DNA of 5,260 nt from a virus (taxonomy: Duplodnaviria; Heunggongvirae; Uroviricota; Caudoviricetes), in IMG/VR virus record IMGVR_UViG_2667527608_000018; one strand, written 5' to 3'. A program made the position numbers and the translations under genes. Numbering within the stretch: position 1 is the stretch's first letter; each line of letters begins with the position of its first letter. Shown in pieces: positions 470-5,260 of the stretch. The notes under the pieces were generated by a model that was given only the letters and a program-made list of their open reading frames with translations, did not search any database and had not been told where the DNA came from.

Positions 470-2341
470 ATGAGTAAAGTCTTTATTTGCGCCGCCATTC
501 CGGACGAACAGGCAATAAAGGAAGAAGGTGCAGTCGCTGTAGCCACTGCCATTGAAGCCGGTGATGAATGTCGCGCCCGCGCAAAATTTCACTGGCAATT
601 CCTGGAACATTATCCGGCTGCTCAGGACTGCGCTTATAAATTTATTGTCTGCGAGGATAAACCTGGCATACCCCGCCCTGCCCTCGATTCATGGGATGCT
701 GAATATATGCAGGAAAACCGCTGGGATGAGGAGTCTGCTTCTTTTGTCCCGGTTGAGACTGAATCCTATCCGATGAACGTCACTTTTGACAAGCTGGCCC
801 CTGAAGTACAGAACGCTGTCATGGTTAAGTTCGACACATGTGAAAACATCACCGTTGATATGGTGATTAGCGCACAGGAATTGTTGCAGGAAGACATGGC
901 AACATTCGACGGACATATCGTTGAAGCGTTGATGAAAATGCCAGAAGTTAACACCATGTATCCGGAGCTTAAGTTGCACGCCATTGGGTGGGTTAAGCAT
1001 AAATGTATTCCTGGTGCTAAATGGCCCGAAATTCAGGCAGAGATGCGCATCTGGAAAAAACGTCGCGAAGGTGAACGCAAGGAAACCGGAAAATACACGT
1101 CTGTTGTTGATCTCGCCCGCGCCAGAGCCAATCAACAGTACACTGAAAATTCAACAGGAAAAATCAGCCCGGTCATTGCTGCCATTCATCGCGAATACAA
1201 GCAGACATGGAAAACACTGGATGACGAACTGGCCTACGCTCTCTGGCCTGGTGATGTGGATGCCGGAAACATTGACGGCAGCATCCATCGCTGGGCAAAA
1301 AATGAAGTTATCGACAACGGCCGCGAAGACTGGAAGCGTATCTCGGCATCAATGCGCAAACAGCCTGATGCCCTTCGCTACGACCGCCAGACTATTTTTG
1401 GCCTTGTCCGTGAACGTCCGATCGACATTCACAAAGATCCCGTAGCACTGAACAAATATATCTGCGAATACCTGACGACAAAGGGCGTGTTTGAGAATGA
1501 AGAAACAGACCTGGGCACTGTTGATGTTCTCCAGTCATCAGAAACACAAACTGATGCAGTGGAAACTGAGGTATCTGATATCCCAAAAAATGAAACCGCG
1601 CCGGAAGCTGAACCATCTGTAGAGCGTGAGGGGCCGTTCTACTTCCTCTTCACCGACAAGGATGGCGAAAAATACGGTCGCGCAAACAAACTTTCTGGTC
1701 TGGATAAGGCGCTGTCTGCTGGGGCTACTGAAATCACGAAAGAAGAATATTTCGCCCGCAAAAACGGTACATACTCAGGTTCACAACAAAATACTGGTGC
1801 ATCTGACACGACCGCACAACCAGGGTCAGTAAAAGTTACCGCTGACGAAGTAAACAAAATTATGCAGGCAGCCAATATCAGCCAGCCTGACGCCGATGAA
1901 CTGCTTGCAGTATCACGTGGTGAATTTGTTGAAGGGATTAGCGACCCGAATGATCCGAAATGGGTTAAGGGGATCCAGACCCGCGATTCTGTGAACCAGA
2001 ACCAGCAAGAAACGGAACAGAACGACCAGAAAGCGGAACAAAACAGCCCAAATACGCAACAAAACGAGCCAGAAACGAAACAACCTGAACCAGTAGTGCA
2101 ACAGGAACCGGAAAAGATCTGCACCGCCTGCGGTCAGAGCGGTGGCGGCAACTGCCCTGATTGTGGAGCGGTAATGGGTGACGCAACCTACCAAGAGACA
2201 TTCAACGAAGAAAGCCAGGATGAAGCCCGGAAAAAAATCCGGAGGAAATGGAAAATGCCGTGCTCCCGAATAAGCAATGCACCGAAGGCGATCAACATGC
2301 CAATGGCAATAATGAAACAGGCGAGACAGCAAATCCCTTAA
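470..2341 (+). CDS. Large hypothetical prophage early-region protein (623 aa) with acidic Q/N/E-rich low-complexity linker and C-terminal CxxC-x7-CxxC zinc-ribbon-like motif; function unknown
   Basis: Uninterrupted 1872-nt ORF; GAGG (457-460) 9 nt upstream of ATG 470; Cys codons at 2120, 2129, 2153 and 2162. It sits upstream of exonuclease-xis-int, the slot occupied by Ea22-like accessory genes in lambda-family phages (recalled synteny, not sequence similarity). Confidence 0.8.
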   Translation: MSKVFICAAIPDEQAIKEEGAVAVATAIEAGDECRARAKFHWQFLEHYPAAQDCAYKFIVCEDKPGIPRPALDSWDAEYMQENRWDEESASFVPVETESYPMNVTFDKLAPEVQNAVMVKFDTCENITVDMVISAQELLQEDMATFDGHIVEALMKMPEVNTMYPELKLHAIGWVKHKCIPGAKWPEIQAEMRIWKKRREGERKETGKYTSVVDLARARANQQYTENSTGKISPVIAAIHREYKQTWKTLDDELAYALWPGDVDAGNIDGSIHRWAKNEVIDNGREDWKRISASMRKQPDALRYDRQTIFGLVRERPIDIHKDPVALNKYICEYLTTKGVFENEETDLGTVDVLQSSETQTDAVETEVSDIPKNETAPEAEPSVEREGPFYFLFTDKDGEKYGRANKLSGLDKALSAGATEITKEEYFARKNGTYSGSQQNTGASDTTAQPGSVKVTADEVNKIMQAANISQPDADELLAVSRGEFVEGISDPNDPKWVKGIQTRDSVNQNQQETEQNDQKAEQNSPNTQQNEPETKQPEPVVQQEPEKICTACGQSGGGNCPDCGAVMGDATYQETFNEESQDEARKKIRRKWKMPCSRISNAPKAINMPMAIMKQARQQIP

Positions 2342-2397
2342 TTACGGTGAACGGTCATCACGTTATCACATCCACCAGCAGGACGTGTGACCATCTA

Positions 2398-2940
2398 ATG
2401 ATCGACCTTAAAACCATGGGAAAAAATCCTGATGCCCCGATTATCTCAATAGGTGCAATATTTTTCGATCCGCAAACCGGAGATATGGGACCGGAATTTA
2501 GTAAGACTATCGATCTGGAAACTGCTGGCGGAGTCATTGATCGGGACACCATTAAACGGTGGCTTAAGCAATCACGCGAAGCGCAATCTGCCATTATGAC
2601 CGATGAAATCCCGTTAGATGATGCACTGTTACAATTGCGGGAATTTATCGACGAAAACTCCGGTGAATTTTTTGTTCAGGTCTGGGGAAATGGAGCCAAC
2701 TTCGACAACACGATTTTGCGCCGTTCATACGAACGGCAGGGGATCCCCTGCCCGTGGCGTTACTACAACGATCGCGATGTACGCACAATCGTTGAGCTGG
2801 GGAAAGCCATAGACTTCGATGCCAGAATGGCTATTCCATTCGAAGGTGAGCGCCATAATGCACTTGATGACGCCCGTTACCAAGCAAAATACGTTTCAGT
2901 TATCTGGCAAAAACTGATCCCGAGTCAGGCTGATTTTTAA
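2398..2940 (+). CDS. DnaQ-like DEDDh 3'-5' exonuclease family protein (prophage exonuclease); start uncertain (in-frame alternatives GTG 2347, ATG 2248)
   Basis: Translation shows Exo I-like MIDLKTMG at the N-terminus, Exo II-like VWGNGANFDNTIL and Exo III-like ERHNALDDARY (H-x4-D). Stop TAA 2938-2940. AGGA at 2380-2383 is 14 nt from ATG 2398, which is weak spacing. Confidence 0.65.
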   Translation: MIDLKTMGKNPDAPIISIGAIFFDPQTGDMGPEFSKTIDLETAGGVIDRDTIKRWLKQSREAQSAIMTDEIPLDDALLQLREFIDENSGEFFVQVWGNGANFDNTILRRSYERQGIPCPWRYYNDRDVRTIVELGKAIDFDARMAIPFEGERHNALDDARYQAKYVSVIWQKLIPSQADF

Positions 2941-2998: not shown

Positions 2999-3202
2999 AT
3001 GAGTAGCTTATTTTTAACCGAAGATGAATTGCTAATATTAACGGGCTGCAAATATGCAAGCCACCAGCGAAAATGGTTAACGGAAAACGGGCTTCCGTTC
3101 TATACCAATCGTAGTGGCAAACCGATTGTCAGCCGGGATCTATTTACCTGCAATAAAACTTTACCACCACGCGAGGTAGAGCCGAATTTTGGTGCAATCT
3201 GA
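2999..3202 (+). CDS. xis: Small excisionase-like / recombination directionality factor-like protein (67 aa), resembling the DUF4224-type proteins found immediately upstream of prophage integrases
   Basis: Small ORF directly upstream of the integrase; its stop TGA (3200-3202) overlaps the integrase ATG (3202-3204) as TGATG. The N-terminal LTEDELLILTGCK pattern matches my recollection of DUF4224-like proteins. Confidence 0.55.
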   Translation: MSSLFLTEDELLILTGCKYASHQRKWLTENGLPFYTNRSGKPIVSRDLFTCNKTLPPREVEPNFGAI

Positions 3203-4227
3203 TGGGAAGACGAAGGAAAAATCCTGAACACGAAAAACTACCTCCAAATGTATACCCAAATAAATATAGTTATGTATGGAAACCAACATCCAGAGAATCT
3301 GTCACACTAACCGCCATCAAGGATGGTTTAGCTGCTTTATGGAAAAGGTATGAGGAAACTGTAAATAATCGCGATCGCGCAATGACATTCGGTCGCTTGT
3401 GGGAAAAATTCCTCGCCAGCGCCTATTACAGTGACCTCAGTCCAAGAACACAAAAAGATTATCTACAACATCAAAAAAAGTTGCTTGCCGTATTCGGTAA
3501 GGTGCCGGCAGATTCCATAAAACCAGAACACATCCGTCGATACATGGACAAGAGAGGGGAGCAGAGTAAAACGCAAGCCAACCATGAAAAAAGCAGTATG
3601 TCCCGCGTTTACAGTTGGGGGTATGAGCGAGGGTACGTGAAAGGTAACCCATGTGCAGGTGTAAGTAAATTCAAGGCCAAAAACCGCGAACGATATGTAA
3701 CCGACAAAGAATACCAGGCAGTATTAAGCGTTGCACCTCTTCCTGTTTTTATCGCAATGGAAATTGCCTATCTGTGTGCAGCGAGGGTTTCCGATGTGTT
3801 ATCGCTGAAATGGGAGCAGATTGGAAACGACGGAATCTTTATCCAGCAAGGGAAAACAGGAAAAAAACAGATAAAAGCATGGAGTCCACGATTACAGGCG
3901 GCGATCGAAAAAGCAAAACAGTTACCAACATCCGCCTATGTAATCAGTAATCAATACGGCAACCGATATATGTACAAAGGCTTTAACGAAATGTGGGTAG
4001 AAGCAAGAAATCGCGCAGGCAAAATTTCAGGTATTTTAACCGACTTCACCTTTCATGATCTGAAGGCGAAAGGAATTTCAGACTATGAAGGAAGCAGTCG
4101 GGATAAGCAACTTTTCTCTGGTCACAAAACCGAGGGGCAAGTGCTAATCTATGACAGGAAGGTTAAAGTTTCACCGACACTTGATGTCCCGTTACCTGAA
4201 AATATTCCAAGAAAATATTCCAAGTAA
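3202..4227 (+). CDS. int: Tyrosine recombinase, lambda-family phage integrase (341 aa)
   Basis: N-terminal MGRRRKNPEHEKLPPNVY resembles the lambda Int arm-binding N-terminus (MGRRR...LPPNLY). Catalytic-domain landmarks are present: AARVSD (Arg I), QQGKTGKK (beta-hairpin Lys), FHDLK (His plus the position of Arg II), GHK and LIYDR (catalytic Tyr codon 4150-4152). Confidence 0.9.
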   Translation: MGRRRKNPEHEKLPPNVYPNKYSYVWKPTSRESVTLTAIKDGLAALWKRYEETVNNRDRAMTFGRLWEKFLASAYYSDLSPRTQKDYLQHQKKLLAVFGKVPADSIKPEHIRRYMDKRGEQSKTQANHEKSSMSRVYSWGYERGYVKGNPCAGVSKFKAKNRERYVTDKEYQAVLSVAPLPVFIAMEIAYLCAARVSDVLSLKWEQIGNDGIFIQQGKTGKKQIKAWSPRLQAAIEKAKQLPTSAYVISNQYGNRYMYKGFNEMWVEARNRAGKISGILTDFTFHDLKAKGISDYEGSSRDKQLFSGHKTEGQVLIYDRKVKVSPTLDVPLPENIPRKYSK

Positions 4228-4234
4228 TTCCAAG
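4198..4234. repeat. Tandem direct repeats at the integrase 3' end: 13-bp unit GAAAATATTCCAA twice (4198-4210, 4211-4223), with the 8-bp core ATTCCAAG present three times (4204-4211, 4217-4224, 4227-4234); candidate integrase arm-type binding sites
   Basis: Read directly from the sequence. The repeat copies fall in different reading frames of int (encoding ENIP versus KYSK), which argues for conservation at the DNA level rather than the protein level. Confidence 0.5.
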
Positions 4235-4279
4235 TGTGATTTTTGTCACTGACTTAATGATGTATAAGTGATTGAATTT

Positions 4280-4369
4280 TGGCGGAGAGAGGGGGATTTG
4301 AACCCCCGGTGGAGTTGCCCCCACTCCGGTTTTCGAGACCGGTCCGTTCAGCCGCTCCGGCATCTCTCC
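4280..4369 (-). tRNA. serU: tRNA-Ser (anticodon CGA), 90 nt with long variable arm
   Basis: Reverse complement reads GGAGAGATGCCGGAGCGGCTGAACGGACCGGTCTCGAAAACCGGAGTGGGGGCAACTCCACCGGGGGTTCAAATCCCCCTCTCTCCGCCA: 7-bp acceptor stem, anticodon loop CTCGAAA, T-loop GGTTCAAATCC, encoded CCA end. It matches my memory of E. coli serU. Confidence 0.93.
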
Positions 4370-4462: not shown

Positions 4463-5260
4463 ATGATTAAGTGGCCCTGGAAAGTACAAGAATCAGCACA
4501 TCAAACTGCCCTTCCCTGGCAGGAAGCACTATCGATCCCCCTTTTAACGTGTCTGACGGAACAGGAACAAAGCAAATTAGTCACTCTTGCCGAACGTTTT
4601 TTACAGCAAAAGCGGCTTGTTCCTTTACAGGGCTTTGAACTGGATTCATTAAGAAGCTGCCGGATAGCACTTCTATTTTGCCTACCCGTTCTGGAGTTAG
4701 GACTGGAATGGCTGGATGGTTTTCATGAAGTCTTAATTTATCCTGCGCCATTTGTGGTCGATGATGAATGGGAAGACGATATCGGTCTGGTGCATAACCA
4801 ACGTATTGTTCAGTCAGGTCAGAGCTGGCAGCAAGGGCCTATCGTTTTGAACTGGTTGGATATACAAGATTCTTTTGATGCTTCTGGTTTTAACCTGATT
4901 ATTCATGAAGTCGCTCATAAGCTGGACACCCGTAACGGCGATCGCGCCAGCGGAGTTCCCTTTATTCCGTTGCGTGAGGTTGCTGGCTGGGAACACGATC
5001 TTCATGCTGCAATGAACAACATTCAGGAAGAAATCGAATTGGTTGGCGAGAATGCGGCGAGCATTGATGCTTATGCTGCCAGTGATCCTGCTGAATGTTT
5101 TGCCGTACTTTCTGAATATTTCTTTAGCGCCCCAGAACTTTTTGCTCCTCGTTTCCCTTCATTGTGGCAACGTTTCTGCCAATTTTATCAACAAGATCCT
5201 TTGCAGAGACTGCATCGCACTAATGATACAGACTCGTTTTCGGCGACGAATGTTCATTAA
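4463..5260 (+). CDS. mtfA: MtfA (Mlc titration factor A), zinc-dependent peptidase with HExxH motif (265 aa); host gene
   Basis: Translation from ATG 4463 begins [20 protein letters not shown] and contains [10 protein letters not shown] (HExxH). The length and sequence match my recollection of E. coli MtfA/YeeI, which neighbours serU. The ORF track's upstream ATG at 4424 adds 13 residues and is probably not the true start. Confidence 0.9.

Follow-up and report, generated by a model that had tools for sequence, protein, structure and literature searches.

Positions 470–2940 (plus strand) of the window, by which we mean the whole 5,260-nt stretch of prophage DNA analysed here, most likely represent a single gene, broken by the loss of one nucleotide from a run of eight adenines (A8), and not a case of programmed recoding. 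We put the probability of this reading at roughly 92%. The ancestral gene would be an “exonuclease” of the phrog_2082 type with 823 codons, of which the window carries 2471 nt instead of 2472, as indicated by the open reading frames (ORFs) of homologues, a single indel and the match of the repaired protein. The gene itself is already known, and the frameshift is either a mutation or a homopolymer sequencing error. For annotation, this means that 470–2940 should be treated as one frameshifted (pseudo)gene, and not as a 623-aa protein followed by an overlapping 230-aa exonuclease.

The gene is embedded in the early-left region of a prophage. On the plus strand, it is preceded by the cell division inhibitor gene dicB (1–189, identical to positions 2032–2220 of the related prophage L013, annotated as DicB) and by a DUF1482 (ydfD-like) gene (186–377, identical to L013 2217–2408). 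It is followed by a gene for a DUF4224 protein in the excisionase position (2999–3202, from the ORF list and the comparison with L013), a tyrosine integrase gene (3202–4227, 341 aa) and mtfA (4463–5260), the host gene flanking the prophage. The attachment site adjoining mtfA is a tRNA-Ser(CGA) on the minus strand (4280–4369), recognized by Rfam among other evidence. This placement agrees with that in relatives, where the gene lies between ydfD/dicB and xis/int of a lambdoid prophage. At this position, mEp460_ev081, HannyBb and STEC prophages have an uninterrupted 2472-nt ORF (823 aa, annotated “exonuclease”). Of 5426 complete E. coli genomes, 3535 carry all or most of the gene.

Intact homologues consist of one ORF of 805–823 aa, with either A8 or no run at all at the site. 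Adding one A to the window yields an 823-aa protein which matches phrog_2082 over its entire length (1–823/823, 1803.6 bits, E = 0), while in the unrepaired window the match is divided between two frames. Aligned with the syntenic intact gene of L013, the window shows a single indel across the gene, located at the A run. Because the relatives have A8 or no run, together with a single 805–823-aa ORF, the frameshift is probably mutational and not a recoding event. The sequence-only reading had proposed to look in relatives for single-A length variation and for a continuous fusion ORF, and both are there (A8 versus A7). We regard as established the ancestry as a single gene, the exact place and size of the indel, the recombination patch described below and the fact that the run is not conserved.

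The frameshift site, identified by alignment, allele tallies and an allele survey, is the A7 homopolymer at 2231–2237 (plus strand), where the upstream ORF and the exonuclease frame part company. As now read, the upstream ORF (470–2341, plus strand) encodes 623 aa and ends in ...EARKKIRRKWKMPCSRISNAPKAINMPMAIMKQARQQIP*. In the -1 frame, a TGA at 2221–2223 is followed by an open stretch as far as the TAA at 2938–2940, reading SPEKNPEEMENAVLPNKQCTEGDQHANGNNETGE...HLMIDLKTMG. The zero frame crosses the run as CGG AAA AAA ATC, with the phasing AAA AAA A, the context of the run is GATGAAGCCCGG(A)nTCCGGAGG, and the alternative junction peptides are ...EARKKNPEEMENAVLPNK and ...EARKKIR. ATG codons are present at both 2248 and 2398. 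What the sequence-only reading stated about the letters, namely the ORF ends, the -1 frame open from the 2221–2223 stop, the A7 run and the two ATGs, all holds.

The exonuclease frame (2224–2940, plus strand), defined by translation, PF16473 and codon statistics, comprises an acidic, N/G-rich linker (2224–2397) and a DEDDh domain. The latter is a Rv2179c-like/DnaQ-like 3'-5' exonuclease domain (2398–2937, plus strand), as indicated by the Pfam match and by alignment to PDB 8kel. PF16473 (Rv2179c-like 3'-5' exonuclease) matched residues 57–228 of the 2224 frame (1e-63, profile positions 2–177 of 177), which places the Pfam domain start, residue 57, at ~2392. Its Exo I motif is D-L-K, not D-L-E, with the Lys codon at 2410–2412 (aligned to IDFETMG of 8kel). 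Just 5' of the linker, the translation contains a CxxC...CxxC motif (CTACGQSGGGNCPDC, 2120–2164, plus strand), kept in homologue fragments, which may form a zinc ribbon. The 823-residue lambdoid-prophage protein would consist of a RecE-N-terminal-like region, the CxxC...CxxC motif, the acidic linker and the C-terminal DEDDh (Rv2179c-like) domain.

By our own arithmetic, 58 open codons have a chance probability of (61/64)^58, or ~0.06, which is only mildly unusual. The openness of the exonuclease frame upstream of Exo I is not due to chance, because in every homologue examined this frame is open and continuous with the upstream protein. Codon log-likelihood ratios and GC contents by codon position in 2239–2338 fit the exonuclease frame (+6.4 bits; GC1/2/3 0.64/0.39/0.48) and not the tail frame of the upstream ORF (−3.2 bits; 0.39/0.48/0.61), the gene-wide GC1/2/3 being 0.60/0.40/0.48. 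This comparison, which had been suggested from the sequence alone, favours the exonuclease frame in the overlap. Past the run, translation of the upstream protein would continue out of frame for ~35 codons, up to a chance TAA at 2339–2341, and produce a K/R/M-rich tail, as translation and codon statistics suggest. This would strand the linker and the exonuclease domain in the -1 frame, where they have no convincing start codon of their own. Every allele keeps the exonuclease frame open, and in each the tail frame closes after 33–36 codons, an accidental open stretch even in the intact ones. A search with the tail protein retrieved only broken pieces of this linker, frameshifted at varied positions, and no conserved tail. 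None of the homologues combined A7 with a C-terminus conserved in the tail frame, the pattern which the sequence-only reading had set against a fusion. One entry, P0123, was considered as a second “ARKKI” case and rejected, since the assembly it comes from is noisy, contains an error in a G run and lacks A7.

The presence of both ATGs, and of a GGAGG at 2241–2245, could also point toward two separately translated genes, a large protein ending at 2341 and an exonuclease starting at ATG 2248 (94-nt overlap) or at ATG 2398 (MIDL). Databases do contain “exonuclease” entries of 180–183 aa and 230 aa, beginning with MIDL or with MEG/MEN. However, these short entries trace back to contig ends, where the frame runs open off the contig, or to decayed genes that follow ~2 kb of uncalled sequence, and intact homologues are always fusions. 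The stand-alone MIDL-start exonucleases were rejected as a class: P0116 lies at contig ends, its frame meeting no stop before the edge, P0089 behind a ~2 kb decayed gene, and P0092 is without a contig on record. Moreover, all alleles keep GGAGGAAATGG as coding sequence, which reads P/L-E-E-M-E. ATG 2248 is the internal Met of this conserved P-E-E-M-E linker, and the gap between the GGAGG and this ATG is only 2 nt, which argues against the start at 2248 that had been considered from the sequence alone. An independent start at 2398 fares no better, with no Shine-Dalgarno sequence before this ATG and with MIDL proteins being contig-end or pseudogene remnants. Two genes are therefore a very improbable arrangement. 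From the three options of the sequence-only reading, both separate starts lack support, and the fusion of the large ORF with the exonuclease through a frameshift at the A run stands, in the mutational sense only.

Among the closest alleles, the site is CGG AAA AAA AAT CCG (R K K N P), an A8 in frame. Complete E. coli genomes with the patch allele have A8 and an intact exonuclease annotation in 16 of 17 cases; the remaining one, 377323_2f, has A7 and is labelled “frameshifted” by PGAP. A8 was also found in all six other contigs with this allele (five from IMG/VR and one metagenome), which brings the tally to 22 of 24 sequences, A7 being present in the window and one genome. We searched for A5–A10 variants of the exact site and retrieved only A8 (five contigs in IMG/VR, none in GTDB representatives, one in JGI metagenomes); beyond the window and the one complete genome, these three collections showed no A6, A7 or A9 polymorphism. 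Other alleles read cagaaaaatgatc, caggaagatgatcc, caggaaaatgatcc or cgggaaaaagatcc at this site, without an A run, which indicates that the run is recent and not conserved.

These tallies bear on whether A7 could act as a programmed slippage site, through transcriptional insertion of one A or a -1 ribosomal shift on tRNA-Lys, to make the 623-aa protein and an 823-aa fusion in a set ratio. The fusion would be restored exactly if the mRNA gained one A or if the ribosome slipped by -1 on AAA AAA A. Furthermore, A/T runs are known transcriptional insertion sites in E. coli, with a frequency that rises exponentially with run length (PMC5574713). Yet, most alleles lack the run, and the closest ones have A8 in frame; among homologues, neither the site nor a two-frame layout is conserved. 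At 7 nt, the run is below the length threshold, since both selection against slippage and its genic use are seen at ~9 nt in many bacteria, and at 8 nt in a few IS elements (PMC1088944). The zero-frame phasing AAA AAA A is not an X XXY YYZ heptamer, and the frame statistics of the tail are non-coding. No downstream stimulatory RNA structure was detected (83 nt at −14 kcal/mol, z = +0.39 against shuffles), an Rfam scan of the window returned the tRNA and no other element, and there is no Shine-Dalgarno-like stimulator or GGAGG upstream of the run. Programmed recoding is already largely refuted by the comparative data, and we give it hardly any credence. The earlier view that programmed frameshifting is not strongly supported is reinforced by the unconserved run, the annotation of the A7 copy in the complete genome as a frameshifted pseudogene and the missing stimulatory structure.

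With the one-gene reading, the origin of the run can be traced. Except for three SNPs and one patch, the window is the serU/mtfA prophage of STEC strains. Compared with L013, it has 70 differences, all within 2167–2430, in addition to SNPs at 2557, 2883 and 4714; the gene is 97.1% identical to that of L013, and identical beyond the patch. From 2143 to 2821, the window matches the L005, L006 and L011 alleles base for base, save for A7 versus A8. The comparison with L013 and L005 delimits a recombination (gene-conversion) patch of at most 2143–2821 (plus strand) and at least 2167–2557. This patch was in all probability copied from the paralogous exonuclease gene of a rspB-site prophage, and it carries both the A run and the Glu to Lys change of Exo I. 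The A8 tract is young and confined to one allele lineage, and would have entered the serU-site prophage within this 391–679-bp patch. Replication slippage at the homopolymer, or an under-call in the assembly, would then have turned A8 into A7, and CGG AAA AAA AAT CCG into CGG AAA AAA ATC C. The exact mosaic of L013 backbone and L005 patch was found in none of the collections searched, with no second independent observation, and the three possible window proteins had zero exact matches in a collection of 15 billion proteins.

As a sub-case of one gene, the A7 may be artefactual, the true genome having A8 and an intact 823-codon gene in which the homopolymer was under-called. Even the patch may stem from reads of a second prophage copy polishing the serU-site copy. 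A8 in 22 of the 24 allele sequences fits such an error, as does the absence of the exact window proteins from the public collections searched. In addition, the gene family is multi-copy, in up to 8–10 places per genome, and donor-type and recipient-type copies occur together in one strain, the setting for mis-polishing. One noisy assembly, L022, exemplifies homopolymer errors in this same gene and in ompW. On the other hand, the identical A7 allele is present in the finished genome 377323_2f, and the window has no sign of low quality, its remainder being identical to L013 bar three SNPs. Lambdoid prophages are well known to exchange sequence by gene conversion. The same gene is also independently frameshifted or IS-interrupted in other genomes, and such genuine lesions are common in it. 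Taken together, we consider an artefact possible, if rather doubtful. The independent frameshifts and IS insertion agree with the decay that has been documented for lambdoid prophages in EHEC (PMC2669165).

If the A7 is real, the split would be expected to inactivate the gene functionally. The run is slippery, and a small full-length fraction may be made, which would probably arise only by rare, non-programmed transcriptional or ribosomal slippage. It is conceivable, though very unlikely, that A8/A7 works as a reversible mutational switch of the contingency type, or that slippage supplies a low, constant amount of full-length protein. In either case, the prophage would alternate between making a tethered exonuclease and making a truncated RecE-N-like protein. 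The sole hint of such a switch or slippage is the recurrence of A7 in two prophage contexts, the window and 377323_2f. The locus illustrates three routine processes, none of them new: the patchwise recombination of co-resident lambdoid prophages, the origin of a fragile homopolymer by point substitution and its contraction.

A literature search on Rv2179c and prophages returned no paper, and no experimental work on the protein family was found. The closest known system is the phrog_2082/RefSeq “exonuclease” (WP_000048403.1, 823 aa; mEp460_ev081 VUF53467.1; HannyBb XNS40216.1), which is the same gene, with the same order dicB–ydfD–exonuclease–xis–int and the same length once the A is restored. 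The window copy lacks one A, hence its split, and carries the paralogue patch, including the Glu to Lys change in Exo I. In the Rac prophage, RecE (exodeoxyribonuclease VIII) has a homologous central region (NF007259 positions 271–603 of 877, 263 bits) and the same location within the early-left region; the Rac-SA53 recE is 83% identical to the window gene across 332 nt. An equivalog would have to score 1269 bits, far more than the 263 reached here, so that the window gene is not a RecE equivalog. Moreover, it has the DEDDh Rv2179c-like domain in place of the C-terminal RecE nuclease domain, and no adjacent recT.

The donor-type allele for 2143–2821 is represented by WP_000990639.1, an 805-aa exonuclease of the rspB-site prophage in O103/O45/O121 STEC with the same A tract. 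In contrast to the window, this type has a different N-terminal part (with a Pfam Exonuc_VIII match), a linker shorter by 21 nt and another integration site. The 377323_2f copy (E9097_RS12460) has the very same A7 as the window, and its existing annotation is that of a frameshifted pseudogene. Finally, genes rescued or regulated by transcriptional slippage on A/T runs, such as Thermus dnaX (A9), Shigella mxiE and those of IS elements, resemble the window in having a homopolymer where two frames overlap, so placed that a single A added to the transcript would fuse them. Those runs are 8–9 nt or longer and conserved together with the two-ORF layout (PMC1088944), whereas the run of the window is 7 nt, lineage-specific and predominantly found in its in-frame A8 form.

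The two overlapping reading frames that the sequence-only reading had described around the A7 run proved correct in every detail when the window was re-read. The upstream ORF (470-2341, 623 aa) ends in ...EARKKIRRKWKMPCSRISNAPKAINMPMAIMKQARQQIP before its stop codon, while the -1 frame, following a TGA at 2221-2223, has no further stop until 2940 and translates as SPEKNPEEMENAVLPNKQCTEGDQHANGNNETGE...HLMIDLKTMG. A7, at 2231-2237, is the exact point at which they diverge. In Pfam, PF16473 (Rv2179c-like 3'-5' exonuclease) covers residues 57-228 of the 2224 frame (E = 1e-63), the domain starting at the MIDL methionine. The feature is real in the sequence, but ordinary. A7 lies within a recombination patch and is either a pseudogenising one-base homopolymer contraction or a base-calling error; whether mutation or error, the locus is one gene, without recoding.

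Homologues consist of one continuous gene. By megablast, at least 80% of 1800-2950 is covered in 21 phage-genome records, and in the annotated records among them a single feature lies beneath the entire match. An 823-aa product encoded by one 2472-nt CDS is found in mEp460_ev081 and HannyBb, flanked by dicB/ydfD-like genes and xis/int, and in L013, the syntenic tRNA-Ser/mtfA prophage of STEC strain 2011C-4251 (WP_000048403.1, intact), which supports the earlier suggestion of a fusion between the large protein and the exonuclease domain. PPompW phages carry this CDS as an annotated pseudogene, "frameshifted by deletion". The window counterpart (470-2940) measures 2471 nt versus the 2472 nt of L013, and multiple alignment with the intact genes revealed one indel, located at the A run. 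With one A added, the window encodes an 823-aa protein matching phrog_2082 ("exonuclease") over 1-823 of 823 (1803.6 bits). At least 80% of the gene is present in 3535 of 5426 complete E. coli genomes, usually with the product name "exonuclease" or "3'-5' exonuclease". The locus belongs to a prophage exonuclease family that is already known and widely annotated, and for which our literature search found no experimental work on protein function.

Codon usage and GC periodicity, proposed earlier as a check, gave the same picture. Across 2239-2338, the exonuclease frame has a coding pattern (GC1/2/3 0.64/0.39/0.48, codon log-likelihood +6.4 bits), in line with the rest of the gene (0.60/0.40/0.48), whereas the frame of the upstream ORF's tail does not (0.39/0.48/0.61, -3.2 bits). 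In every allele the exonuclease frame runs from the linker into the domain without a stop, and in the alleles compared the tail frame meets a stop after 33-36 codons. This identifies the K/R/M-rich tail as out-of-frame read-through.

Programmed frameshifting or slippage at A7 would also join the two halves, yet the site lacks conservation, its phase is AAA AAA A and not the X XXY YYZ of a slippery heptamer, and the 83 nt that follow are no more stably folded than shuffled sequences (z = +0.39), in agreement with the weak support that this option had been given. Rfam elements in the window were limited to a tRNA. In genome surveys slippage matters from about 9 nt, or 8 in some IS elements (PMC1088944), and the frequency of transcriptional insertions grows exponentially as runs lengthen (PMC5574713). 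Rare transcripts with an added A (+1A) would again yield the fusion, as incidental leakiness and not by design. Neither separate start that had been considered for the exonuclease held up: ATG 2248 encodes the Met of a conserved P-E-E-M-E linker motif and follows GGAGG by only 2 nt, and ATG 2398 (MIDL) has no Shine-Dalgarno sequence. The MIDL-initiated database entries of 180-183 aa (contigs L019, 1-783, and L021, 1508-4043) are artefacts and not independent genes, being either contig-end truncations, as in P0116, whose frame is open to the edge, or what is left intact of a decayed full-length gene, as in P0089, preceded by about 2 kb of decayed sequence.

The single-A length variation that was to be looked for in the run was indeed found. 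The A8 form, CGG AAA AAA AAT CCG GAG GAA ATG (R K K N P E E M), is in frame with both halves. It occurs, in genes annotated intact, in 16 of 17 complete genomes at least 99% identical to 2167-2330; the seventeenth, strain 377323_2f, has A7 and is "frameshifted" according to PGAP. In RefSeq the identical lesion already carries a frameshift flag. A gapped-pattern search allowing A5-A10 retrieved A8 throughout, in five contigs from IMG/VR and one from a metagenome, with no match in GTDB representatives. Since other alleles lack the run, reading cagaaaaatgatc, caggaagatgatcc, caggaaaatgatcc or cgggaaaaagatcc at this site, the A8 tract is young and lineage-specific, made by substitutions from GGGAAAAAGAT to GGAAAAAAAAT, and A7 is best read as its contraction.

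A sequencing or assembly error may also have produced A7: homopolymer runs invite errors, the gene exists in multiple copies, the exact window mosaic was found nowhere else in the collections searched, and one noisy assembly contains comparable errors. However, the same A7 is present in the finished genome of 377323_2f, and genuine independent lesions of the gene are common, including +T in L014 (near window 1797), +A in L015 (near window 1607), the PPompW deletion and an IS3 insertion. The gene either decays often or is often mis-assembled. Many frameshifted fragments of the linker were also seen in the protein collection.

Over all 5260 nt the window and L013 differ at 73 positions, 70 of them inside 2167-2430, the remainder being single SNPs at 2557, 2883 and 4714. 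Within 2143-2821, the window equals the rspB-site prophage exonuclease gene (L005/L006/L011; WP_000990639.1, 805 aa) base for base, with the sole exception of A7 versus A8. The window gene is therefore of the L013 type, with a recombination patch taken from an L005-type paralogue and measuring 391 nt (2167-2557) at minimum and 679 nt (2143-2821) at maximum. Both gene types are present in strain 2011C-4251, and the patch is due either to gene conversion between prophages residing in the same host or to a chimera introduced by polishing. Beyond the patch, only 4714 (mtfA) and 2883 differ from 2011C-4251, the latter a private synonymous SNP (CAA versus CAG, Gln) absent from L013-type and L005-type copies. 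The L013 integrase, "frameshifted" according to PGAP (1051 nt), is identical in sequence to window 3202-4253, yet the window's integrase ORF (3202-4227, 341 aa) aligns collinearly with an integrase of equal length that is annotated intact in L018.

At Exo I, the window and all A8/A7-lineage alleles read MIDLKTMG (Lys codon 2410-2412), as opposed to MIDLETMG in every other allele and IDFETMG in the solved homologue 8kel. Judging from this motif, the lineage allele may be catalytically impaired even at full length, and the Glu-to-Lys exchange at this catalytic position suggests that the donor allele was already under relaxed constraint.

A CxxC-x7-CxxC motif (CTACGQSGGGNCPDC, 2120-2164), a putative zinc ribbon, directly precedes the acidic linker and is kept in homologue fragments. 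The N-terminal region of other alleles matches Exonuc_VIII or YdfE_N/YdfE_C, and the window's own had no match in the local Pfam copy. Within window 470-2100, the RecE-homologous central region of the protein spans residues about 246-626, corresponding to the non-catalytic part of RecE.

The common lesions of the gene are in line with the genetic defects documented in EHEC lambdoid prophages (PMC2669165). The central part of the repaired 823-aa protein resembles positions 271-603 of the RecE equivalog NF007259, but its 263 bits fall far short of the cut-off of 1269. The window gene occupies the same prophage position as Rac recE, though without recT, and carries a DEDDh domain in place of the RecE nuclease domain.
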